Counted from the stretch's first letter, positions 2,489 through 41,024 are shown. The stretch: DNA of 64,000 nucleotides from Thermodesulfobacteriota bacterium (GCA_963675595.2 CAXXLZ010000002.1:3232001-3296000); one strand, 5' to 3'. The notes: generated from the letters alone by a model not told the origin. Numbers and translations: made by a program.

Positions 2489-4210
2489 ATGAACGGAAGG
2501 CATGGAGGCGGGTGTTTCGGAAGTGTTTACACAGGCCGGACGAAATGGGTAAGGAGCGGAGCTTTCTCCCGCGCAGGTGTGATCATCGTTTTTCTGGTTT
2601 TCGCGTTGGGAGGATCACACGCCTTCGCCGTGAACCAAGATCCGACCATTGACTTGCCCGCCGGGCCGTTGACCTACACGGACGTGCAATGTGCTGAATT
2701 CCAACCCGTCGGCGCGGGCGTTGTATTCAACGATCCCGACGGTTCCGTGGAACCGGACGGGAGTGGAGATCCCGGGCAGAACGCCGAGTTGATCATCCAA
2801 GTGATTGATAACGCGCACGATCTCGACGAGTTGACCATCAATATGGATGGGACCGGGTTCGCGGTGGACCTGTTCGAGCTGACCCTCAACGGCGAGGTCC
2901 CGCCGCCTTGGATCATTGGGGGAGGCAAAGCCGAATTGCGCGCCAAGTTTAAAGACGGAGCCACGGTGGCCGAGGTGCAGAAAATAGCGGAAAATATTCT
3001 CTGGCGTAACACGGCGGTCGCACCCGAAGCGCAACGCACCGTCAAGTTCAGCATCTATGACGGAGCCGGAGGGTACGCGGAGGATACCATCGTGGTGCGG
3101 GTCACCCCCACGGACAAGCCGCCGCGCAACAGAACCGATATCGTTATGACCCAGCTCGATCTTGCGGAGGTACGTCACCAGTACTTGGTCGGGCCCGGAT
3201 GGCGTATCGATCGGCGGCCCACACAGACCTTCGACAACGCGGTTTTCGACGGAGATACGCGCATTCGTCTCGTTTCGGACGGCACTCAGAACGACTACGA
3301 GGGATGGAGCTACGACATCGGTGACGCCACCCGGGTTTCAGTGGAAATGTATGTGCCTTCCACCTGGGGAATCACCGGCAAGGAAGTGCGCGCCGGTCTA
3401 TGGGTGCACGGCTATACCGACCAGGGAGAGCGTATCGAATTCCCGGTGGTTTTCGTGGCGCAGCCGGACGGAGCGCCCGCTCCCAATACGGTGAAGTTCT
3501 ATCTTGATCCTTATGTGGACAAGCCTCTGCCGGCGGACGTCAAATTGGACGCCTGGATGACTTTGACCGTGATTCTGGACAACGGCGACCTCCAGTATTT
3601 CCTCACCGGAACGAGAACCAACGGCGAATCCTTCACCCTGAGCACTGTAAAGGCCGGCACAGGGGTCACCAGCCTGCATCAGGCCCTACTGTCGACGAGT
3701 TTCGCTCCTGCGGGTCAAAGTTTTACCGCGTATTTCGACAACCTGACCTGGAATTCGGGAACCGGGGACAACCAAGAATGGACGCCTCAGGAAACCACGG
3801 CGGGAAAAGCCGTGGTGATCGAAGGATTGATGGTGGCCCCGGGGACGCCGGGCGAGATTCTGACCACGGTGCTCACCACGGGCGGCGGTAATTTGGTGCC
3901 GAAAAGCGGTTCCGGCGCATCCGTCAGCGGTAGCGGCACCGGCAGACTCACCATTCAAGGCACCGCGGATCAGATCAATGAGGCCCTGTCCGAGCTCACG
4001 TTCTATCCGGGAGGCGACACGGAGGGCCGAACCGAGATTCTCGCCGTGACCAGCAATTCCCAAGGGGAGAGCGACACCGATACCATCCTGGTGAACGTAA
4101 AAGCCGTTCCCGTCCCGACCATGGTATCGGCGCTTAATGAAATGGGACTGGCCGTGCTCATCCTGCTGTTGGGGTTCGTGGGATTCCGTATGGTCCGAAG
4201 ACGCGCGTAA
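2489..4210 (+). CDS. Secreted acidic surface protein with an IPTL-CTERM-like sorting tail
   Basis: GGAGG before the ATG; hydrophobic signal region; Ig/cadherin-like segments (LTIQGTADQINEAL); C-terminus VPVPT..LNEMGLAVLILLLGFVGFRMVRRRA (motif, TM helix, Arg cluster). Start is approximate. Confidence 0.75.
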   Translation: MNGRHGGGCFGSVYTGRTKWVRSGAFSRAGVIIVFLVFALGGSHAFAVNQDPTIDLPAGPLTYTDVQCAEFQPVGAGVVFNDPDGSVEPDGSGDPGQNAELIIQVIDNAHDLDELTINMDGTGFAVDLFELTLNGEVPPPWIIGGGKAELRAKFKDGATVAEVQKIAENILWRNTAVAPEAQRTVKFSIYDGAGGYAEDTIVVRVTPTDKPPRNRTDIVMTQLDLAEVRHQYLVGPGWRIDRRPTQTFDNAVFDGDTRIRLVSDGTQNDYEGWSYDIGDATRVSVEMYVPSTWGITGKEVRAGLWVHGYTDQGERIEFPVVFVAQPDGAPAPNTVKFYLDPYVDKPLPADVKLDAWMTLTVILDNGDLQYFLTGTRTNGESFTLSTVKAGTGVTSLHQALLSTSFAPAGQSFTAYFDNLTWNSGTGDNQEWTPQETTAGKAVVIEGLMVAPGTPGEILTTVLTTGGGNLVPKSGSGASVSGSGTGRLTIQGTADQINEALSELTFYPGGDTEGRTEILAVTSNSQGESDTDTILVNVKAVPVPTMVSALNEMGLAVLILLLGFVGFRMVRRRA

Positions 4211-4271
4211 CTCAGGGCGGGGCAAGGGGGACCAAGTCCTCGCTTCCGTGAAAACCCTTCCGAGACGAATC

Positions 4272-4304
4272 AGCCGAGCGCCTGTACAGGCGCTCGGCTT
4301 TTTT
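4272..4304 (+). terminator. Intrinsic terminator, same sequence family as the tRNA-Pro terminator
   Basis: AGCCGAGCGCCTGTACAGGCGCTCGGCT followed by a T run. Confidence 0.75.
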
Positions 4305-4435
4305 GGATTCATTGTTGCATTCTTTCGGTCGGGGTGACCGAAGCTGCATTCCGACCGATTTGCGGCTGTCCAAGAAAGCGGTCGGTCAAAGTGGCTTCGT
4401 CGAAACTGCAGGTCGGCCGAACCTCTCGTCGCGCA

Positions 4436-7400
4436 TCAAGACGGCGTGTCCGAGTCGGCCTCGAAAGCGAGGTCCAGGGTTCGAACCCCTTGAAAGCCTG
4501 GAAGGACAAAGGTTCCCATGCCTTGCGTCTGAGCCGAAAGGCCGAAATTTACCGAGTAGGCCCGTTCGAAAATATCCTGATCCGCTCCGATACCGTCGCC
4601 CACCACGGGGTCCAAAAAAGCGGACAAAGTGTCGCCGACAAGAGTCACCAGGACTGCCGAGCCGGCTTCGTACCGCTGCAGATAGAGGTTCACGTCCTGC
4701 TCGGGCGAGCGCCAGATTCCGTTGGGTGGGAGGTAGGGCCCCGTTTCGGAGGTTTCCGCGAAAAGAAGGGTGACCTCGTAGGTTTCAAATCCCTTTTCCG
4801 TTTGTAGATGCACTTTTCCGGCTTCAGTGGAATCCCCGAATTCGAACACCAACGTTGTCGGAGGGCCGGCGTAACTCCGGAACACATAGGATGCGTCGGT
4901 CACGTCCTGGTCCAGCAACGCCGTTAGACTCCCCTCGTGCAGGAGAACGAGGAAGCTCGAATCGGTTTCATACGTCTGCAGAAAGAACTTCACGGATTGG
5001 TCTCGGCTGCTCCATATGCCGCTGCGGGGAAATTCGTGGGCACCCGCCGCCTGAACCACTTCCGTCGTTTGGGGCAGCGACAGGAAGCCCTGCTCGTCCT
5101 CCGCGTAAAAGGCGATATGGTAGGTACCCGGTTCCGCGAAACCGTCATACACGCCCTCGTATCGGTCGCCGTTCTCGATCAAAGGGAGGATGGGCAGGGA
5201 GGCCACCGGAAAATCCGAGTCCCGAAGAGGCACATCCGGGGGGATGATCATGGCAAAAACGTCGTTTCTCGCGGTGGAGGCGATAACGCCCTCCGCCCAA
5301 AGCTTGAGCGTCTTTTCGCCGGCCAGTTGGGTGGTGGGAATGACGTTTTCAATCTCGGGCAGAGTGGAAGCGGTTGCGATGCCTCGTCCGATTCTCAGTT
5401 GTTCGACGATCGCCAGGTCTTCGTCCTCATTGGCAATTGCGTTCCCATTGGCTTCGATTTGAGGCGTCTGATTTCGGCCGGAAAAGGTGTGACGCAAACC
5501 CCGTTCCGCGATTCGGAAAGCGTTTTTCACGGTTTGGCCCTGAAATATCTGGGTCCAGAAAAATCCGGAAAAGGAAATGGTTCCTTCCACCATGTAGGCC
5601 GGTTCATCGCCCGCCGCACTGGTAACCAGGTATCGGTTCGGGTAATCGGAGTTGATCAACTCCGGAAGGAAGCTGCCGGAATGGCAGGCGTCGATCACCA
5701 GAAGCAGATAACCCGGCAGGGTGCTTTGCGCTTGGTCGATCCAATTCCGCAGGTCGCTGGTGGGCAGGCTCACATTCTTGTTGATGTCGAACGATCCGAC
5801 CCGTCCGTGATCAATCAGAAAGACCAGGAGGTTTTCGGCGTCCCCGGCCCACTGAGTCAGGGTTGTTTCCAGGCCCGCCAACGTGGGCTCGGCGTAGATA
5901 TCGTTGAATCGGCCGTCGTTATCCAAATCCTGATGGGTGACGGGGCTGAAGTAGCGGATGTTCTCTTTCTTGAAGCCTTGGAACAGAAGGGTCCTGTAAA
6001 ACAAGCCGGCCGTACCGGATGTTGCCTCCCAGATGCTGTTTTCGTCACCGGCCCCGCCCCCCGCGATGATGACGGCCTTGTCCTGCAGGGCATTCGCAGC
6101 GGGATGAAACACCTGAATTCGGTTGTTGCCGAGATCGGTTACGAATATGTCCCCATCTCCGTTCACCGCCGCATCGTACGGCCGGTTCAGATAACCGGTC
6201 CCGCTGCCGAAGCCGCCCATTTCTCCCTCGAACTCCCATGAACCGGAAAATACCTGCACGCGATGATTCTCATTGTCCGCCACGAAAACACGGCCGGCTT
6301 GATCCGTGGTCACACCGTAAGGCCGATTGAATTCTCCGGGACCGTCGCCTTTGGTTCCGGTCCCCAAAATGCCCACGAAGGTGTGATCCGCTTCAAAGAC
6401 CTGAATTCTGTGGTTCGCGGTGTCGGCAACGTAGATCCTGCCGTCCGAACCCACGTCAATGCCTCTGGGAGCGTCGAACTCTTCGATGTCCGGACCTTCC
6501 TCGCCCCATTGGAACAGAAATTCGCCTTCGCCGGAGAATTCCTGTACGCGATGATTCAGCATATCGGTCACATAGACGTTTCCCGTCTCGGAAACGGCGC
6601 AGTCGTAAGGAGTCTTGAACTCCTTTTCCCCTGAACCAAAGGATCCCCAGGACTTTTTGAACTCTCCGGAGGATGAGAATTTTTGGACTCGGTGGTTCTC
6701 CGAATCCACCACGAAAATCTCCCCGGCGCCGGAAACACAGACCCCCACAGGTCCGTTGAATTGCCCCTCGCCCGAGCCCTTTTCTCCTCCCAATGTGAAT
6801 TCATGGACGCCCTCGGGGGAAAAGACCTGAACCCGGTCATTGAGGTAATCGCTGCAGTAGATGTTTCCGTCCGGCCCGATGGCGGTCTGCATGGGCCACC
6901 TGAAAAACCCGTCGGAGGTGCCGTTGACCGCCCATTTGTTCGCCGCTTTGGCGTCGGGCGGGAACCTCAGGATTCGATGGTTGGAGCGATCCGACACGTA
7001 TACGGTGTCATCCGCGCCGACGGCGACTCCCATGGGATCGGAAAGAGACCCATTAACGAATCCGTCGTTTTTCCATTGGGAAATGAATCCGCCGTCCGCT
7101 CCCAGTTGCTGAATGCGATTGTTTCGACGATCGACCACGTAGAGACTTCCGGTGGAATCAAAAGCCAGGCCCGCGGGATAGTCGAATTCCAGGGGTCCGG
7201 AACCCGGACTTCCCCAGGCATCCAGCAAGACCCCTTGCTGATCGTACTTTCGAATTTGGGAAGACTCCCGTTCGCTCAAGTAGATGTTTCCTTGAGAATC
7301 AACCGCGATGCCCGTGCCGATCCCTTCGTAAGGGAAGGTGTCTTGCGGAATCGGTTGCCCGTCCTTGGTAAATCTTTGAACTTCGTCGGCGAAATAGTCC

Positions 7401-7852
7401 ACAAGCAATAGAAAGCCGTCCTGATGCCAGGCGATGGGCACCGGGTCCATGGGCCAAGGGGGAATCCCTTGGTAGATGGGCCATTGAGTCAGGAATTCGC
7501 CCGTGGATGTGAACTTCTGGATGCGTTTGTTTCCATTGTCCGCAACGTAGACGTTATCTTCGTCGTCTATGGCGATTCCCGACGGATCGTTGAATTCCCG
7601 CTCCCCCGTCCCGAATCCTCCCCATGCGTTGCACAACCTGCCCAACGGAAAATATTTCTTGACTCGATGGTTCCCGGTGTCCACCACGTAGACGTAACCT
7701 TCCGAATCCGTTGCCACGCCTTCTGGGTACAGGAAAGACCACTCCTCCGGGGAGGAAGGCCAAACCTGGGCAACCTCGTATGTTTCCGCACGAGCGGCGC
7801 AAGGAACGAGGAACATCAGAACAAAGAAACAGGCTGAAAGGCGTTTCAACAT
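4436..7852 (-). CDS. Secreted NHL-repeat beta-propeller protein with a clan CD (C13/caspase-fold) peptidase domain and two C-terminal GIW/QTY modules
   Basis: Signal peptide; about 12 NHL repeats (F..P.GIA.D..G..YV.D..N.RIQ.F); FLIDHG and IDACHSGSF His/Cys motifs. Confidence 0.85.
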   Translation of the reverse strand: MLKRLSACFFVLMFLVPCAARAETYEVAQVWPSSPEEWSFLYPEGVATDSEGYVYVVDTGNHRVKKYFPLGRLCNAWGGFGTGEREFNDPSGIAIDDEDNVYVADNGNKRIQKFTSTGEFLTQWPIYQGIPPWPMDPVPIAWHQDGFLLLVDYFADEVQRFTKDGQPIPQDTFPYEGIGTGIAVDSQGNIYLSERESSQIRKYDQQGVLLDAWGSPGSGPLEFDYPAGLAFDSTGSLYVVDRRNNRIQQLGADGGFISQWKNDGFVNGSLSDPMGVAVGADDTVYVSDRSNHRILRFPPDAKAANKWAVNGTSDGFFRWPMQTAIGPDGNIYCSDYLNDRVQVFSPEGVHEFTLGGEKGSGEGQFNGPVGVCVSGAGEIFVVDSENHRVQKFSSSGEFKKSWGSFGSGEKEFKTPYDCAVSETGNVYVTDMLNHRVQEFSGEGEFLFQWGEEGPDIEEFDAPRGIDVGSDGRIYVADTANHRIQVFEADHTFVGILGTGTKGDGPGEFNRPYGVTTDQAGRVFVADNENHRVQVFSGSWEFEGEMGGFGSGTGYLNRPYDAAVNGDGDIFVTDLGNNRIQVFHPAANALQDKAVIIAGGGAGDENSIWEATSGTAGLFYRTLLFQGFKKENIRYFSPVTHQDLDNDGRFNDIYAEPTLAGLETTLTQWAGDAENLLVFLIDHGRVGSFDINKNVSLPTSDLRNWIDQAQSTLPGYLLLVIDACHSGSFLPELINSDYPNRYLVTSAAGDEPAYMVEGTISFSGFFWTQIFQGQTVKNAFRIAERGLRHTFSGRNQTPQIEANGNAIANEDEDLAIVEQLRIGRGIATASTLPEIENVIPTTQLAGEKTLKLWAEGVIASTARNDVFAMIIPPDVPLRDSDFPVASLPILPLIENGDRYEGVYDGFAEPGTYHIAFYAEDEQGFLSLPQTTEVVQAAGAHEFPRSGIWSSRDQSVKFFLQTYETDSSFLVLLHEGSLTALLDQDVTDASYVFRSYAGPPTTLVFEFGDSTEAGKVHLQTEKGFETYEVTLLFAETSETGPYLPPNGIWRSPEQDVNLYLQRYEAGSAVLVTLVGDTLSAFLDPVVGDGIGADQDIFERAYSVNFGLSAQTQGMGTFVLPGFQGVRTLDLAFEADSDTPS

Positions 7853-12180: not shown

Positions 12181-13269
12181 TCATGCTTGGTCCGCTTGGA
12201 GACGAAATTCATAGGTCCGTTTTTCCATGGTCAATCGCCATAGAACAACGGCCAGTTTCCGTGCCAACGCACAAATGGCCTTTTGTGGAAGGCCCGTTCG
12301 CGACAGGAGTTTTCGATAATGCGAATCAATGGCCGGATCCCTGGACTTCCACGTCCAGGCCGCCTCCACCAACAGACTCCGCAGTCGCGTCTGACCCACG
12401 GGAGGAAGCGCCACTCGAGATTTCCGCTCTCCGCTTTGTCTTACCAACGGTGCGAGTCCCAGATAGCTGGTCACTTCCTCCACCCGATGGAACCGACTCG
12501 GGCGAAACAATTCCAGGAGGAAGGTAGCCGCTGTGATGGGACCCACCCCGGGGACGCTTCGAAGGCATCGCATTTCCTCAAAGTGTTCAGGTTTCTCGCA
12601 CACACTGGAAGTCCTTTCCTCCATGAAGGCTTTTTCCTTTGTGAGGAAATTCAACTCACGGAGCAAGCTGAGCAGCGTCGCTTTGGCCTCCTTCGGCAGA
12701 CGAAGCTTTCGAAGTTGCGCCACAGCGCTTCGGCCCCAATGATTGAGCCCGGGAGGCGCCTCCACACCGTGAAACAGCAGAAGGGATTGAATTCTCTGCT
12801 TAACGCGTCGAGTGCCGTCGGCCAGATCGTGCCGACGGCGAATTACGCTGCGTTCGGCCTCCTCTTCCTCCGTGGGAACGGCGATGGACTTCAATATCCC
12901 TCGGGCGGCATGGTCCGCCAACCGCATGCAATCCAGGCGGTCGGTCTTGGCCCCCGCAGTCACCGGCCTAGGGACCCGACTCGGCGCCACCACGATCACG
13001 CTGAACCCGGCTTTGGCCAAAGTGCGCGCAAGGCCGAAGCCGGTGGGCCCCGCTTCGTAGGCTACGGCTCGGATGCGCCTCAAGTGGGGGAGCAACATGG
13101 CCACGATGGCCTCCGGAGAGGCCGAGGACACAAAAGTCTTCACCTCGCCGTCGCTGCGAAGCACGGCCACGTGGTAGCTCTTTTTGTGTACGTCGATCCC
13201 GACGTGGAAATCACGGTCGATATCCAGCTCCAAAAACTTGGCCAATTCTGTTACTTTCGTTGCTACCAT
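12181..13269 (-). CDS. IS110-family (DEDD) transposase/recombinase
   Basis: VGIDVHKK, YEAGPTG, AKTDRLD, LRSVPGVGP, YLGLAP...QSG; AGGAG RBS before ATG 13269. Confidence 0.95.
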   Translation of the reverse strand: MVATKVTELAKFLELDIDRDFHVGIDVHKKSYHVAVLRSDGEVKTFVSSASPEAIVAMLLPHLRRIRAVAYEAGPTGFGLARTLAKAGFSVIVVAPSRVPRPVTAGAKTDRLDCMRLADHAARGILKSIAVPTEEEEAERSVIRRRHDLADGTRRVKQRIQSLLLFHGVEAPPGLNHWGRSAVAQLRKLRLPKEAKATLLSLLRELNFLTKEKAFMEERTSSVCEKPEHFEEMRCLRSVPGVGPITAATFLLELFRPSRFHRVEEVTSYLGLAPLVRQSGERKSRVALPPVGQTRLRSLLVEAAWTWKSRDPAIDSHYRKLLSRTGLPQKAICALARKLAVVLWRLTMEKRTYEFRLQADQA

Positions 13270-13441
13270 GTTGGTCTCCTTTCTGTTTGGGTGATGCTCC
13301 ATCATAACGATCGAGCACCTGAGGCCAACATGGTATTTTCCCGGCCCCTTTCCCAAACAATTTGAGCGGGTTGCTCGCCGGCGCATCGCAACCGAGGTCG
13401 GGCGGTCTCACTGAATAGGTTACCGGGTCCGTAACAAAAGG

Positions 13442-13534: not shown

Positions 13535-15558
<2,024 letters not shown>

Positions 15559-15589: not shown

Positions 15590-16135
15590 GTGATCACGCG
15601 CCGTCAATATCTCATCGGATCGGCCCTGGCCCTCTGCGGTGTCGGGTGCGGATGGGCGATGTTCGGCCCGCTTTATCGGCGCATGCGGTGGAAGCACATT
15701 GTGATCCACCACAGTGCGTCGGATGCGGGCAACGCGGAGGTGTTTGATGCGTGGCATCGACAGCGGGGCCTGCGCTTCGGCTTGGCGTACCATTTCGTCA
15801 TCGGCAATGGAAAGGGCTCGGGAGACGGCGCGGTGGAGATCGGGAACCGATGGGAAAAGCAACTGTGGGGCGCCCACGTCAAGAACCGCACATGGAATCT
15901 GCATTCCATCGGAATCTGCCTGGTGGGCAATTTTGAACATGACTCACCCACGCCTCGGCAGATCAGCCGCCTGGAAAAGCTCATCCTCGAGCTGTCGGAA
16001 ACCTACGGAATCGAGGTTTCCGAAATGAAAGGCCATAAAGAAGTGCCCGGGGAACACACCCTTTGTCCCGGGTCAAGGTTTGATTTGGATGCGTTTCGGT
16101 CGGGTCTGGGGGTTGGCCCTGGACCTTTTGCATAG
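15590..16135 (+). CDS. N-acetylmuramoyl-L-alanine amidase (Amidase_2/PGRP family), possible Tat signal
   Basis: TRRQYL N-terminus; HIVIHHSA, YHFVIG, GAHV, SIGICLVGNF, GHKE, TLCPG. Confidence 0.85.
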   Translation: MITRRQYLIGSALALCGVGCGWAMFGPLYRRMRWKHIVIHHSASDAGNAEVFDAWHRQRGLRFGLAYHFVIGNGKGSGDGAVEIGNRWEKQLWGAHVKNRTWNLHSIGICLVGNFEHDSPTPRQISRLEKLILELSETYGIEVSEMKGHKEVPGEHTLCPGSRFDLDAFRSGLGVGPGPFA

Positions 16136-16303
16136 TCCGAGGAGAAGCGCCGCCGCCGCTTTCGAATCCGAAGACCTACTTGCCGCGGCGGGCTTGGGGG
16201 TTATTCGTCCGGCCTCGGGCCGGCGCGGGTGAGAGGGTCTGGTCAACACCTGTGCACGGGAGCGCAATCCTTGAACGGCGCTCTTCGGGCGAAGGGTGGT
16301 GAA

Positions 16304-16429
16304 CTCAGCAGACGCGCGCCGAGGTTCTTGTTGCGGTTGTCCGGCGTGTTGTTGTTCCGATTCGCCGAACGGCAGTTCTTCGCGTTGTTGTTCCAGCTGC
16401 CGCCGCGTTTCACCCGGTTGGAGCCTGAT
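16304..16429 (-). repeat. DGR template repeat (TR)
   Basis: Ungapped match to 18494-18619 with 25 mismatches, 24 at TR adenines; 12 AAY codons; conceptual translation SGSNRVKRGGSWNNNAKNCRSANRNNNTPDNRNKNLGARLL. Confidence 0.97.
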
Positions 16430-16435
16430 CGTCCC

Positions 16436-17446
16436 TCACACCAAATTCTTGCCGTAAAAGAAATCCCGTCTCATCCTCCAGGTATCAGCATGCAATACGT
16501 GGCCGAGCAGGCTTGCCGCCGACCTTGCGAACCGTTCATCATCCATTTCCCCGGATAGATAAGCCTTCTCATTTTCGCGAAACTTTCGACGAAACCGTAC
16601 CAGATTGGCACGCTTCAGCCGAATCAGGTTGGGAAACACCCTGAACCCCAAAAACGGAACCCCTTGCGAGACCGGCGCCAGGAAGGTTCCACTTTCCTTG
16701 AGGCGGAGATTGAGCCGCTGGGAAAGAAACATGCCGATCCGTGCCCTCAACCGGTGTAGCTCTTCCTTGCCGGTGCTCAGGACGACCATGTCATCCATAT
16801 ACCGGATGTACCGTTTCACTCCCAACTCGTCCTTCACGAAATGGTCCAGTTGATTCAGATAGTGGTTCGCCCACCATTGGCTCGTGAGATTACCTATGGG
16901 CAGGCCTTTGCCGGGTATTTGATCCGGCATGGGATGATCTATGATGAGAAAAAGCAAGGCGAGCAGGTCCGCATCCTTGATCTTGCGCTCGATCATCCGC
17001 TTCAGAATCGCATGGTCGACGGAATCGAAAAACTTCTCCACGTCCATTTTCAGAAAGAAATTCGAATCCCGGCAGAAGGATTGGAGCCTTGCAATCGCCC
17101 GGTGAGTGCCCTTGTCTTTCCGGCAGGCGTAGGAATCGTGAATGAACGACCGCTCGAAAAGAGGCTCCAGCACATTGCATACCGCATGATGGACGACGCG
17201 GTCACGAAAGTCGGCGGCGCAGATCCGCCGTTGTTTGGGTTCATGGATGGTGAAGCTTCGGTACGGTTCGGGACGGTAGGTCTTGGAAAGCAATTCTCGC
17301 TGCAAAGCGACCAGCTCGAACTCGAAATTCAGATGGAAATCGGCGACCCTGGGTTTGTTCAGCTTTCCTCTAAAGGCCTTGCGGGCCGCTGAGCACAGAT
17401 TGTGGAAGGAGCAAACATCCTCGAACAGATTTCCGTATCTCTTCAT
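16436..17446 (-). CDS. DGR reverse transcriptase
   Basis: 336 aa; KQRRI, FRDRVVHHA, GLPIGNLTSQWWAN (the SQ motif typical of DGR RTs), YIRYMDD, PFLGF; no maturase domain. Confidence 0.95.
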   Translation of the reverse strand: MKRYGNLFEDVCSFHNLCSAARKAFRGKLNKPRVADFHLNFEFELVALQRELLSKTYRPEPYRSFTIHEPKQRRICAADFRDRVVHHAVCNVLEPLFERSFIHDSYACRKDKGTHRAIARLQSFCRDSNFFLKMDVEKFFDSVDHAILKRMIERKIKDADLLALLFLIIDHPMPDQIPGKGLPIGNLTSQWWANHYLNQLDHFVKDELGVKRYIRYMDDMVVLSTGKEELHRLRARIGMFLSQRLNLRLKESGTFLAPVSQGVPFLGFRVFPNLIRLKRANLVRFRRKFRENEKAYLSGEMDDERFARSAASLLGHVLHADTWRMRRDFFYGKNLV

Positions 17447-17787
17447 GGTCCTTCCTGTTGCTTGATCCAGGCCCCCACCATCCTGCCGATCTCGTAGAGT
17501 TCTTTGACCGCGTGTTCATAACCTCGGTCGCCCAGGTACCTTTGTTCATGGGAAATACGGAGGAGCACTCGCATCTTTTCGATATCCAGATTGACGCGTC
17601 TCAACAGCGTGGTCTTGTTCGACGTATACGCCGCTTCAACGAGGCGTTCCAGGATGTCCAGAGCGAGGTTGCCCAGCCTGGAAGAAAACGTGAAGCGCAC
17701 CCGCTTGGGAAACTTTTCCGTGGCCGAAAGCAGCCAAGCGAGAAAGCGCCGCCAACGAACGAAAACTTTCAGGTCGTCGTGCCCCAA
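17443..17787 (-). CDS. avd: DGR accessory variability determinant (Avd-like four-helix bundle)
   Basis: About 114 aa and basic; KFPKRVRFTFSSRL ... EIGRMVGAWIK; TTG start after GGAGGAG; stop overlaps the RT start (ATGA). Confidence 0.88.
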   Translation of the reverse strand: MGHDDLKVFVRWRRFLAWLLSATEKFPKRVRFTFSSRLGNLALDILERLVEAAYTSNKTTLLRRVNLDIEKMRVLLRISHEQRYLGDRGYEHAVKELYEIGRMVGAWIKQQEGP

Positions 17788-17789
17788 GA

Positions 17790-18278
17790 CTATGGCTCCT
17801 CCACGGTGGCTTTGGCGGAAGCGACCACCGCAAGGATGTCCTTGCCGTATTTTGTCAGCTTGGCGGTTCCAATCCCTTCCACGGCCGCAAGTTCGTTGAG
17901 GCTCTTGGGTGCCTTTGAGGCGATTTCGGCAAGGCGTCTGTTGTCGCAGATCACGTAGGGGGGCACGGCGTCCGTCTTGGCCCGTTCGTTCCGCCATTCC
18001 CGCAAGAGGTTGAAGAGCGGCATGCTTTCGTCCGAGAGCAGCGAGCGGTAGTCCTGCTTTTCCTTTTCCTGGAAATCCGTGGCTACGTCTGGGGTTTCCA
18101 CCTTCGGGCGAGGAAGTTTGTACAGCACCATGAACGTCCAGTACGCGTCGCCGTTTGCCGTGAAGAAATGCTCCCGCACCGAAAGGACCTCTTTGTCCGT
18201 CATGAAGGATCGGAGGGGTCCGTCGTCGAAACCCTCGATGACAGGTGAGAAACGGAGCGTGAAAATTCGTATGTGCAT
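17790..18278 (-). CDS. HRDC-domain protein (DGR accessory)
   Basis: LFNLLREWRNERAKTDAVPPYVICDNRRLAEIA...VEGIGTAKLTKYG is a canonical HRDC signature. Confidence 0.88.
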   Translation of the reverse strand: MHIRIFTLRFSPVIEGFDDGPLRSFMTDKEVLSVREHFFTANGDAYWTFMVLYKLPRPKVETPDVATDFQEKEKQDYRSLLSDESMPLFNLLREWRNERAKTDAVPPYVICDNRRLAEIASKAPKSLNELAAVEGIGTAKLTKYGKDILAVVASAKATVEEP

Positions 18279-18480
18279 GGATTCACGAATCCGATGGTAA
18301 ATTCAGCCTCGCTTCGCTCGGCTTTCTCTTCCCCCTATCCTCACGCCGGGGACGGCTGCCCGTTCCGGGCCGGGTTCTCCGCTCATGGGCTTCGCCGCAT
18401 GCGCAGGCTCCGCCCTCTTCGCTTGGAACCCAGGCCCTCCCCGACAAGGAAAACCACAAAGGGTAAAGGGGTAAAAGGGA

Positions 18481-20604
18481 TCAGGGGTAAGACCTCAGCA
18501 GACGCGCGCCGAGGCTCCGGCTGCGGTTGCCCGGCGTGAGGATGTAGCGACTCGCCGAACGGCAGAACCCCGCGCTGAAGAGCCAGCTGCCGCCGCGTAT
18601 CACCCGGCCGGAGCCCGACGACGGACCCGTGGGATCCGTCACGGATCCACCGGGATAGTCGCCGTACCAATCCTGCACCCACTCCCACACGTTTCCGTGC
18701 ATATCATACAATCCCCAGGCATTGGGATCATAACTCCCCGCAGGCACCGTGGAATCAACCGGCAAACCTCTCGATTTTGCGTAGGAGACACATCTTGTTT
18801 CCGAACTTCCGGGATCGTTTTCATAGTTCATCTTGTCACACCTCGGCTCGTCTCCCCAAGGGTATCGGCCCGTGCTGCCGGCCCGCGCCGCATACTCCCA
18901 CTCCGCTTCCGTGGGCAGCCGATACCGATGCCCTCCCGCCAACCGATTGAGCTTCCCGATGAACTCTTGACAGTCGTTCCAGGAAATATTCTCCACGGGG
19001 CAGTCGTCTCCACAATTCTTGAATTCGGAGGGATTGCTCCCCATAACGGCCTTCCACTGCCCTTGGGTGATCTCCGTGGTCTGCAGGTAAAACCCTTTGC
19101 TAAGCGTCACTTGGTGCTGCGTCTCATTGCTGACTCGGCCCGGCTCGTTGCTCGGGCTTCCCATCATGAACGTGCCCGGCGGAATGTACGCGAAGGTGAA
19201 TTCCACGCCGGCAATGCGATCCACAAGGGTTTTCCCCGTTCTTTCCGAAGACTGCGACGGCTTGGGGGGAACCGCCGTCAGCCGGATTTCCACGTCCCGG
19301 TCTTCCCCGGCGTCCAGATCGATCCATTCCTCGTGCGCTTCGTATCCTTCCGCCGAGACCTCCAGATGATACCGCCCGGCGGCCAGTTCCATCCCTTGGC
19401 TGAACCGAGGCGCGATGTTCAAAATCCGCACCGCGGCGTCGGAAGGAACCGTACGCACGTACAGCCGTGCCGGCTTGGGCCTTACCGCCGTCAAGGACGC
19501 CCGCACGATGCGTTTGCGCCCGGATTGAATCTCCATTTCGTCTTCCCAGGGCTCGTACCCCTCTTTGATGATTCGCACCCGAACACGACCGGCGGGCACA
19601 TCCGGCACGAAGGCCGGAGCTTCCCCCATGTCCTTCCCGTCCATGTACACTCGCGCGCCGTCCACCCGTGTCCCGTTTACACTTGCCCGGATCTCCAGGT
19701 GCCCGGTCTTCTTATCCGGCTTGGGACCGGGCGGTTCCGGCTCGCTCCATTGAGCTCCCTGTTGTGCGATAAAAACAAAGTCGCCCCTCGAAAGTTCATA
19801 ATCGCGAATGTTCCCGAATTGAGGGGTCTGGTCTTCGTGTTTGGGCACCTCCTTGCGCAGATATAACCCCAGTTCCGTGCCGGAGATGTACCCGTCCTTG
19901 TCCATATCTCCCAATCCGTATTTCAAGGCATCCACAAAGGCCGGCGTAAAGGTGCTCTTAGCCGGCACCGATTCCCCCGCATCTCCGGCCGTCAGATACT
20001 GTCGCACGGGGAGGGCGGTCATTTTGCTGATGTCCGGCGGCACGTTCGGCAGGTCCTTGGCCTTGAAAATGGTGCCCGAAAAACAGCTGTCGAAAAGAAA
20101 CAAGGCGTGCTTGGCGTTCATGTCGCGGGACCAGGCCAGAATCTGATCCATGGAAAGGGACTTCCGAAGGAATTCCTTTTCATTTTCACGAGGGTCCGGA
20201 GCGTCCTTGGGCAACAGGTAGCCTTTGGAACCGTCCCGCATGGTATGCCCATGACCCGAAAAGAAGAACAGCAACCGGTTCCGCCTGTCGTACCCGTATT
20301 TGTCGATGAAGGCCTTGAAAGTTTCATCCAGTTCCCTGCCGGTAAGATTGTCCTTCCTCACCACCTCGAACCCTTGGTCCTTGAGCACCTCTCCTACCGC
20401 GTCCAATTCCTTCGGTACGTTGGGGAGTCTGGGCCAGCCGGCGGTGTAGTCGCTCATGCCGATAAGGAGGGCATAACTGCCGTCGTAGAGCGGCAGCACT
20501 TCCCCCGACTTGGTCTTGACCTGGATCCCCTTGCTCGTTCCCGAGGAGGTCAGGGGGAGGAACAGCGCCGAAATCAATACCAGAACGGGAAGGAGTCTTC
20601 TCAT
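18481..20604 (-). CDS. DGR target: secreted caspase-like (C14) + PEGA + FGE-sulfatase/CLec-fold protein
   Basis: GGAGG RBS and signal peptide; FFFSGHG and LFDSCFSG; two PEGA-like repeats; FMMGSP..E, TEITQGQW, RLPTEAEWEYAARAG, GLYDMHGNVWEW; C-terminal VR. Confidence 0.93.
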   Translation of the reverse strand: MRRLLPVLVLISALFLPLTSSGTSKGIQVKTKSGEVLPLYDGSYALLIGMSDYTAGWPRLPNVPKELDAVGEVLKDQGFEVVRKDNLTGRELDETFKAFIDKYGYDRRNRLLFFFSGHGHTMRDGSKGYLLPKDAPDPRENEKEFLRKSLSMDQILAWSRDMNAKHALFLFDSCFSGTIFKAKDLPNVPPDISKMTALPVRQYLTAGDAGESVPAKSTFTPAFVDALKYGLGDMDKDGYISGTELGLYLRKEVPKHEDQTPQFGNIRDYELSRGDFVFIAQQGAQWSEPEPPGPKPDKKTGHLEIRASVNGTRVDGARVYMDGKDMGEAPAFVPDVPAGRVRVRIIKEGYEPWEDEMEIQSGRKRIVRASLTAVRPKPARLYVRTVPSDAAVRILNIAPRFSQGMELAAGRYHLEVSAEGYEAHEEWIDLDAGEDRDVEIRLTAVPPKPSQSSERTGKTLVDRIAGVEFTFAYIPPGTFMMGSPSNEPGRVSNETQHQVTLSKGFYLQTTEITQGQWKAVMGSNPSEFKNCGDDCPVENISWNDCQEFIGKLNRLAGGHRYRLPTEAEWEYAARAGSTGRYPWGDEPRCDKMNYENDPGSSETRCVSYAKSRGLPVDSTVPAGSYDPNAWGLYDMHGNVWEWVQDWYGDYPGGSVTDPTGPSSGSGRVIRGGSWLFSAGFCRSASRYILTPGNRSRSLGARLLRSYP
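18494..18619 (-). repeat. DGR variable repeat (VR)
   Basis: Encodes SGSGRVIRGGSWLFSAGFCRSASRYILTPGNRSRSLGARLL; differs from TR almost only at adenines. Confidence 0.97.

Positions 20605-39143: not shown

Positions 39144-41024
<1,881 letters not shown>

Follow-up and report, generated by a model that had tools for sequence, protein, structure and literature searches.

A complete chromosomal diversity-generating retroelement with HRDC and Avd accessory genes in a Thermodesulfobacteriota bacterium, accompanied by an enzyme-less second template repeat and remote variable-repeat-like sequences

A 64,000-nt stretch of DNA from a Thermodesulfobacteriota bacterium (GCA_963675595.2, CAXXLZ010000002.1:3232001-3296000; hereafter the window) was found to carry, between positions 16,304 and 20,604, a diversity-generating retroelement (DGR) composed of a target gene ending in a variable repeat (VR1), an HRDC accessory gene, avd, a reverse transcriptase (RT) gene and a template repeat (TR1). 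Our preferred reading, to which we assign a probability of about 85%, is that this is a complete chromosomal DGR of the HRDC-plus-Avd class, in which cDNA primed in cis on an operon RNA would recode VR1 of an exported-looking target. Judged from its sequence, the DGR is real and complete, and probably functional, while present-day activity, service in trans to five other VR-like repeats of the same genome and use of a second, RT-less template repeat (TR2) are what we infer beyond that. To our knowledge, DGRs are the only system of targeted protein hypermutation in prokaryotes. Their mechanism is known mostly from one phage element.

Coordinates refer to the plus strand of the window. All parts of the cassette lie on the minus strand, so that the mismatches described below show at T on the plus strand. 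Read in the minus sense, TR1 (window 16429..16304) and VR1 (18619..18494) could be aligned over 126 bp without gaps and with 25 mismatches, 24 of which fell on adenine sites of TR1 (12 A>G, 9 A>T and 3 A>C). The sole mismatch elsewhere was a G>C change at TR position 73 (window 16357), which converts codon CGG to CGC and is synonymous, with Arg in both repeats. Under a hypergeometric model, 24 or more of 25 mismatches would coincide with the 37 adenines among the 126 positions of TR1 with a probability of 2.0e-15, and 88 of the 89 non-adenine positions were identical between the repeats. Re-alignment and translation thus reproduced what a first-pass annotation of the window had reported for this repeat pair, including the lone synonymous exception. 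Its count of 12 AAY codons in TR1 (11 AAC and one AAT) was also correct, its figure of ‘about 35’ adenines slightly too low. Nineteen codons of TR1 contain adenine; the coding potential amounts to ~10^19 peptides, with stop codons possible from three Lys codons. Similarity between TR1 and VR1 stops abruptly at each end. On inspection for the initiation of mutagenic homology elements (IMH/IMH*), both repeats were seen to end 3' in the same GC-rich 21-nt sequence, beyond which the flanks part (9/17 alike, by eye).

The minus-strand order of the cassette is target/VR1, a 211-nt spacer, HRDC, avd, RT and TR1 (Table 1). All four open reading frames (ORFs; target, HRDC, avd and RT) were intact and translationally coupled: the HRDC stop codon is followed after 2 nt by the TTG start of avd (17787), itself preceded by GGAGGAG, the avd stop codon overlaps the RT start (ATGA), and 6 nt separate the RT stop codon from TR1. 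The Avd protein scored 102.9 bits against NCBIfam NF033474 ‘DGR protein Avd’ (curated cut-off 80) and 67.8 against Pfam bAvd PF22296 (cut-off 40). Motifs of the RT included LPIGNLTSQ at residues 182-190 (IGNLTSQ at 184-190) and YMDD at 216-219; the motif-4 signature of the DGR clade of RTs is [ILV]GxxxSQ. None of the NCBIfam RT families attained its cut-off with the cassette RT. Both the junctions and the motifs agree with the earlier description of RT, avd and HRDC as intact and tightly coupled, and the earlier DGR call as a whole is upheld by the adenine-specific repeat pair, the RT motif, Avd, HRDC, a VR situated in a lectin domain and a covarying RNA.

In the target protein, Pfam matches were obtained for FGE-sulfatase (E 2.9e-49, residues 473-704), PEGA (E 9.1e-20) and Peptidase_C14 (E 4.8e-15, residues 44-184; PF00656, 56.3 bits against a cut-off of 21.4), the middle of the protein being occupied by two PEGA/CarboxypepD_reg-like domains between protease and lectin. 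The translation contains SGHG and DSCFSG, which we take to be the His/Cys dyad of an orthocaspase. VR1 falls within the C-terminal FGE-sulfatase domain, which has a C-type-lectin fold, and the closest solved chain to the target was Treponema denticola TvpA (2y3c, E 1.8e-28). Read by eye from the translation, the N-terminus resembles a signal peptide, and the protein may be exported.

Table 1. Features of the DGR cassette and its immediate surroundings, in window coordinates
Feature	Position	Strand	Basis or remark
Target gene, 707 aa, carries VR1 at its very end	18481..20604	-	Pfam and translation
Variable repeat VR1	18494..18619	-	ends 13 nt before the end of the target stop codon
VR 3' flank, last target codons and stop up to the HRDC start	18283..18493	-	conserved 3' of five VR loci
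HRDC accessory gene, 162 aa, HRDC domain at residues 88-152	17790..18278	-	Pfam PF00570 E 4.1e-20; RecQ HRDC chains match
avd, 114 aa, TTG start	17443..17787	-	NCBIfam NF033474, Pfam bAvd
DGR reverse transcriptase, 336 aa	16436..17446	-	RVT_1; phrog_1423 E 1.3e-127; motifs
Upstream duplex strand GGUGUGAGGG, across the RT stop codon	16433..16442	-	complementarity to CCCUCUCACC
Template repeat TR1	16304..16429	-	alignment to VR1, codon count
Structured RNA, spacer-like domain 3' of TR1	16146..16303	-	RNAalifold, covariation
11-bp stem-loop, begins 21 nt after TR1	16260-16283	-	covariation
Downstream duplex strand CCCUCUCACC	16228-16237	-	complementarity to GGUGUGAGGG
Hairpin, then A-rich stretch	16206-16227	-	RNAalifold
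Long interrupted stem	16192 to about 16146	-	RNAalifold
Amidase_2 gene, convergent with the cassette	15590..16135	+	phrog_822 E 1.6e-21, phage lysis families
Group II intron, RT/maturase ORF 13951-15402	13562-15558	+	Rfam RF02003, RF00029; Pfam RVT_1 and GIIM
IS110-family transposase (DEDD_Tnp_IS110 and Transposase_20), 3 kb from TR1	12181-13386	-	Pfam

The sequence 3' of TR1 bears the marks of a conserved RNA structure. An alignment of the window with ten related elements, taken from the TR 3' end onward, yielded 34 predicted pairs in RNAalifold, 24 of them with change on both sides. By an independent count, 90.1% of cells were paired, compared with 34-51% when the partners were slid by 1-3 columns, and none of 500 shuffles was as good. 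A long-range duplex is offered by the two strands listed in Table 1, which are complementary over 10 nt apart from one U.U mismatch; all 12 aligned elements had an equivalent in the corresponding places, differing in sequence from one to the next. The duplex was scored for each sequence separately, the MAFFT alignment A4 having set it out of register, and for seven of the 12 sequences it was matched in no more than 5 of 500 shuffling trials. A search for Rfam families at the TR1 flank gave no match.

The eleven sequences were used to build a covariance model, which returned 63 hits in 87 sources at E up to 0.01 (L014-L095, the window, L009 and L011); over these hits the covariation persisted. 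The distal long stem was kept in nearly all 63, and the 11-bp stem-loop was present in 13 of 14 hits at loci with avd only, in 12 of 17 at loci with both avd and HRDC (the other five being weak hits at VR ends) and in 0 of 27 at loci with HRDC only, in a tally where the loci are kin, avd was detected by one tblastn query at E 1e-4 and the alignment was fitted to the model. If the pattern holds, HRDC-only DGRs of this RT clade would build a differently organised ribonucleoprotein (RNP), lacking the stem-loop that tracks avd.

Published systems are cited here from partial texts of the sources. In the RNP of the Bordetella phage DGR, an 11-bp stem-loop bound by Avd is reported to lie just after the TR, sequence upstream of the TR to form a duplex with the spacer, a short stem-loop to be accompanied by adenosines and a long stem to bind the RT (bioRxiv 10.1101/2023.10.23.563531). 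The phage element, BPP-1, and the window share Avd and RT, adenine mutagenesis and the order of the RNA elements 3' of the TR; functions of the window RNA elements are assigned by analogy with this RNP only. Unlike the window element, which is chromosomal, has its TR after the RT gene and encodes an additional HRDC protein, BPP-1 is phage-borne, follows the order avd-TR-RT and diversifies the tail-fibre protein Mtd. As a consequence of the RT-TR order, the upstream duplex strand in the window is located within the 3' end of the RT gene and not in avd, as it is in BPP-1. No counterpart of the cruciform that follows the VR in BPP-1 was found after VR1.

Taken together with this analogy, the arrangement suggests the following course of events. 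The operon HRDC-avd-RT-TR1 would be transcribed, and the RNA comprising the last ~10 nt of RT, TR1 and ~160 nt downstream would fold into an RNP scaffold made up of an Avd-type stem-loop, the duplex between upstream and downstream strands and further stems. RT-Avd would copy TR1 into cDNA by cis-priming, as proposed by analogy with the Bordetella phage DGR, misincorporating opposite adenines, and the cDNA would replace VR1 at the 3' terminus of the target gene; as many as 19 codons for the ligand-binding face of the lectin domain would thereby be recoded.

The RT, avd and HRDC genes of the cassette were each present as a single copy in the 6.79-Mb genome (tblastn); other RT matches were at most 31% identical, seven of them being identical copies of a group II intron. 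Searching the genome with the TR for remote VRs, a step that the first-pass annotation had suggested, uncovered TR2 and five VR-like repeats, which lie without exception on contig C2, at distances of 1.5-2.4 Mb. Each repeat was compared with the better-matching TR. Against TR2, adenine sites accounted for 21 of 23 mismatches in X4724 and 20 of 22 in X903 (two non-adenine mismatches in each); against TR1, for 24 of 27 in X950 (three non-adenine), 19 of 26 in X885 (seven) and 25 of 34 in X952 (nine, five of them in the last 15 nt). The genes hosting X4724 (700 aa, intact) and X885 (712 aa) encode orthocaspase-PEGA-FGE proteins and those hosting X950 and X952 are tandem PKD-FGE genes; the host gene of X903 is frameshifted, its FGE domain being spread over two frames. 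Signal-peptide-like N-termini were seen in the remote target proteins, whether of orthocaspase or PKD type.

With a count of about 20 FGE-domain paralogues in this genome, the TR1/VR1 pair might be regarded as ordinary paralogous sequence or as chance similarity. That explanation has practically no probability left, since it is refuted by the restriction of mismatches to adenines (P 2e-15) in a pair of which one member is non-coding and lies beside an RT gene, and by the recurrence of the same pattern in all five further repeats (P 2e-7 to 1e-12). The paralogue count is derived from 21 tblastn rows including the query itself; one further paralogue lies at G000 C2:881685-883553 (L010 about 3686-5554), and others were seen at about 14 other places. 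One of these paralogues is a tandem orthocaspase-FGE gene just 5' of the gene for the X885 target; likeness in its VR region is only 83% over 36 nt.

Five VR loci also have in common the sequence following the VR, the first ~110 columns of the VR 3' flank alignment being near-invariant in all five; this flank may represent a target-recognition or promoter region. The 3' RNA domain, in turn, was detected in the genome as three full-length copies and one weak partial match (19 bits). One of the full-length copies belongs to TR2, scoring 112.6 bits against 113.4 for TR1, at a locus (locus 2, G000 C2:4724298-4724834) that equals the window locus (locus 1) minus window 16481-18250. What is missing is a 1.77-kb segment holding HRDC-avd-RT, with a clean junction and a 1-nt overlap, HRDC being reduced to 28 nt and RT to its final 45 nt; TR2, situated 285 nt from its VR, and the entire 3' RNA domain are retained.

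The configuration at locus 2 raises the possibility of one core serving two templates: the RT-less locus would be a working satellite, whose TR2 RNA the RT, Avd and HRDC proteins of the window would use in trans to diversify the neighbouring VR and perhaps others. We hold this reading tentatively, as a real possibility carrying less than even weight. In its favour, the deletion spared the upstream duplex strand (within the remaining RT 3' end) along with TR2 and the whole 3' RNA domain, and the TR2 duplex is perfect, with 10 of 10 pairs, equalled by only 3 of 500 shuffles. Identity to locus 1 amounts to 95-97% for TR2 and its flanks (122/126 positions in the TR, 161/168 in the 3' RNA flank, 49/51 at the RT 3' end), with 179/190 (94%) for the VR 3' flank, compared with 137/165 (83%) for the amidase remnant and 48-87% for the target coding sequence. 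The neighbouring target of 700 aa is intact, and its VR, X4724, shares with TR2 both GCT at positions 10-12 and C103, differing from it at 21 adenine and two non-adenine sites. Against this, recent copying or gene conversion could produce high identity without selection, GCT in place of AAC is a VR-type change in a TR, perhaps passed from VR to TR by recombination, and the deletion at locus 2 could be very recent. Selection on cis elements that still work would account for the high likeness of the non-coding cis regions of the two loci, and so would concerted evolution.

Marker positions bear on the timing of exchanges between the repeats. TR1 and TR2 differ at four positions, namely 10-12 (CAA/GCT) and 103 (G/C). 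G103 was restricted to TR1 and VR1, with C103 in TR2 and the five other VRs, and GCT at 10-12 was restricted to TR2 and X4724, which means that sequence has passed between each TR and the VR next to it after the TRs diverged. For locus 1, VR1 alone among the VRs having the private G103 of TR1, this places an exchange between TR1 and VR1 after the TR1/TR2 split, and the simplest reading of the shared marker is the normal flow from TR to VR. For locus 2, the AAC>CTC change in TR2 resembles a VR-type change, so that VR-to-TR conversion is equally possible. The remote VRs all lack G103, which indicates that TR1 has not rewritten them through position 103 since G103 arose.

A different arrangement was seen at X903, where a VR-type 5' part with upstream coding sequence is joined to a TR-type 3' flank (166/168 identical to locus 1), followed by an internally deleted amidase gene. 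From its sequence, X903 has the make-up expected of a product of recombination between VR and TR, a VR/TR hybrid scar. Two other origins were considered and ruled out: retro-copying of the flank, because ~165 nt of flank carry no adenine-specific changes and only two differences in 168, and re-insertion elsewhere of an excised VR x TR circle, which predicts a VR-type flank after the TR that was not seen. The X885 locus consists of a VR and an amidase remnant, with no TR.

A competitor to a working element is one that is intact in sequence yet silent, the TR/VR differences being historical and the other VR loci fossils of lost cassettes. The lack of TR1's private G103 in all five other VRs fits this picture, as do the non-adenine mismatches of X885 and X952, the frameshift in the X903 target and the cassette deletions at locus 2, X885 and X903. 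Several further results weigh against our preferred reading. Folded as a single sequence, the whole TR1 RNA did not surpass its shuffles (z -0.86). The long-range duplex of the window itself, taken alone, was equalled in 101 of 500 shuffles and is not significant, and a hairpin sought 3' of VR1 also folded no better than shuffles (z +0.82). A scan of the minus strand for sigma-70-like promoters gave no site. Simple faithful copying does not account for C at TR position 73 in four of six VRs with G in both TRs, which could stem from an old TR mutation with partial conversion tracts or from a site-specific copying error. (A like G>C change before AAC, at TR position 81 of the related locus L017, is common to all three VRs of that locus.) The sequencing data comprised five runs from two studies, all as Logan contigs, and those of four runs were compared with the window; a 431-nt contig across VR1 in run X1 had no differences from the window. 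Deviating letters within VR1 in the contigs (e.g. at 18517) carry the C103 of the paralogous VRs and were read as misplaced paralogues. Among 41 related genomes, three had an RT match, the organism's own included, with a best identity of 47% and no RT orthologue, and 79 metagenome loci matched the target at up to 63% identity in the lectin domain only, providing no orthologue for a comparison of VRs between strains.

A silent element nevertheless appears unlikely to us. It sits poorly with four defect-free and tightly coupled ORFs, with RNA elements that are intact at both TR1 and TR2, and with a VR1 that departs from TR1 at only one of 89 non-adenine sites and carries TR1's private marker.

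Whether the element belongs to a phage is a separate question. The 39 ORFs scanned between window positions 55 and 35937 had cellular functions, with a molybdopterin oxidoreductase, an NHL/Peptidase_C13 protein, a sigma-54 activator, an SLH protein, MscS, an epimerase and others flanking the cassette, and no phage structural or packaging families were found among them. An earlier statement that no phage genes are nearby is accordingly right for structural genes and has to be amended for the Amidase_2 gene next to the cassette, which matches phage lysis families. This match (phrog_822) and the presence of an IS110 transposase and a group II intron within 4 kb are what speaks for a prophage or prophage remnant whose DGR diversifies a phage protein. 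Such an origin is very improbable in our view, given the cellular character of the flanking genes, the orthocaspase or PKD targets with signal-peptide-like N-termini, and remote VRs lying 1.5-2.4 Mb off, in that PMC5758913 ties remote targets to non-phage DGRs. Remnants of the Amidase_2 gene at three other loci of the family indicate that the amidase belonged to the duplicated module.

Further observations were made in the surroundings of the cassette. The 3' part of the group II intron is 100% identical at six other places in the genome and ends ~30 nt before the amidase gene. An RT-like match inside ORF 39396-40952 (window about 39693-40358, plus strand; C2:3271693-3272358) was 27% identical to the DGR RT over 225 aa. 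The NHL/Peptidase_C13 gene (4436-7852, minus strand) encodes a protein of 1138 aa with eight NHL repeats and a legumain-like Peptidase_C13 segment, another caspase-fold protease with a binding module.

Related elements were collected at 82 loci, with RTs 35-59% identical to that of the window, mostly in metagenome-assembled genomes (MAGs) of Desulfobacterales, Planctomycetota, Bacteroidota and Spirochaetota according to the record titles. Full-length HRDC homologues upstream of the RT were found at 55 of the 82 loci, avd at 31 and both at 11; in ten of these 11, the TR directly follows the RT and an adenine-biased TR/VR pair is present. Full-length target homologues adjoin related DGRs at L019 (52% identity over 715 aa) and L017. 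The 90% cluster of the target contained one other member (P0003), a 112-aa N-terminal fragment from another assembly, 90% identical. In a contig from run X5 (record 25, from another study and under another organism label), an amidase homologue with 13 differences in 496 nt is joined to a VR-like piece; with P0003, it shows that related strains exist. In the collections searched, as far as the sequences go, the element is without close kin.

Each feature of the element has a published counterpart. Of 372 curated DGRs, 14 contain an HRDC gene, around half of these together with avd, and the same survey records avd-RT-TR orders, remote targets as a mark of non-phage DGRs and non-adenine differences in 23% (PMC5758913). 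The Treponema denticola TvpA DGR (Architecture C) resembles the window element in having an HRDC gene by the RT, a variable protein of FGE-type C-lectin fold and a chromosomal, non-phage setting; in T. denticola and Architecture C, too, remote targets lie more than 100 kb away and target-like genes outlast loss of the core (PMC4891356 for the persistence of T. denticola target genes). An HRDC gene inside the cassette, between VR1 and avd, places the window element among the HRDC-containing DGRs (Architecture C) of PMC5758913. Unlike the T. denticola DGR, it also has avd, in common with about half of the survey's 14 HRDC DGRs. Its TR follows the RT gene, whereas that of the T. denticola system precedes the HRDC gene, and the targets of the window family are orthocaspase-PEGA or PKD fusions instead of TvpA-type lipoproteins.

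Multiple loci in one genome are known from Thiohalocapsa PB-PSB1, which has a complete locus for each DGR class and ‘degenerate’ loci without RT or TR (PMC10907252). There, as in the window genome, VRs of incomplete loci match a TR elsewhere and mobile elements shape the loci, and action in trans has been proposed. The targets in Thiohalocapsa are mostly cytoplasmic STAND/MoxR sensors of conflict systems, whereas those of the window family look exported; loss there proceeded by replacement with transposons or miniature inverted-repeat transposable elements, and in the window genome through clean deletions or a collapse of VR x TR. For Thiohalocapsa, population measurements of diversification exist; the window element is known from assembled contigs. 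Orthocaspase domains have been reported in cyanobacterial DGR variable proteins (PMC7517822), and metacaspase-FGE-sulfatase fusions are also on record (PMC3501461). Like the window target, these proteins begin with a caspase-like peptidase and carry an FGE/C-lectin domain at the C-terminus. The window target differs from the cyanobacterial proteins in its signal-peptide-like N-terminus and in the PEGA domains between protease and lectin, and its host is not a cyanobacterium, the relatives of its RT being mostly in Desulfobacterales and Planctomycetota MAGs, by title. No description of this organism's element was found in the literature searched; the supplements of PMC5758913 and bioRxiv 10.1101/2023.10.23.563531 may list its architecture or RNA elements.

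As nothing about the element is new in kind, its value is that of a good model case and not of a discovery. It represents the HRDC-plus-Avd class, which has been studied less, in a clean and complete form from a cellular genome, with covarying RNA around the TR that corresponds one-to-one to the elements of the phage RNP. The added value resides in the second, RT-less template and in a natural deletion series within one genome, running from the full cassette to a locus with only the template, one with only the VR and a collapse of VR and TR, which offers a ready test of which parts are required in cis and which act in trans. The loci could be seen as a hub-and-satellite network, in which one RT-Avd-HRDC core would work with two templates, TR2 being a naturally minimised, enzyme-less one in which a clean deletion spared just the RNA parts required for cis-primed reverse transcription, on up to five exported targets (three orthocaspase-PEGA-lectin and two PKD-lectin proteins); this wider picture, to which the avd-tracking stem-loop is a linked lead, is doubtful at present. 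Exported-looking orthocaspases with a hypervariable lectin domain would bear on the question of what is recognised by bacterial caspase homologues outside the cytoplasm.

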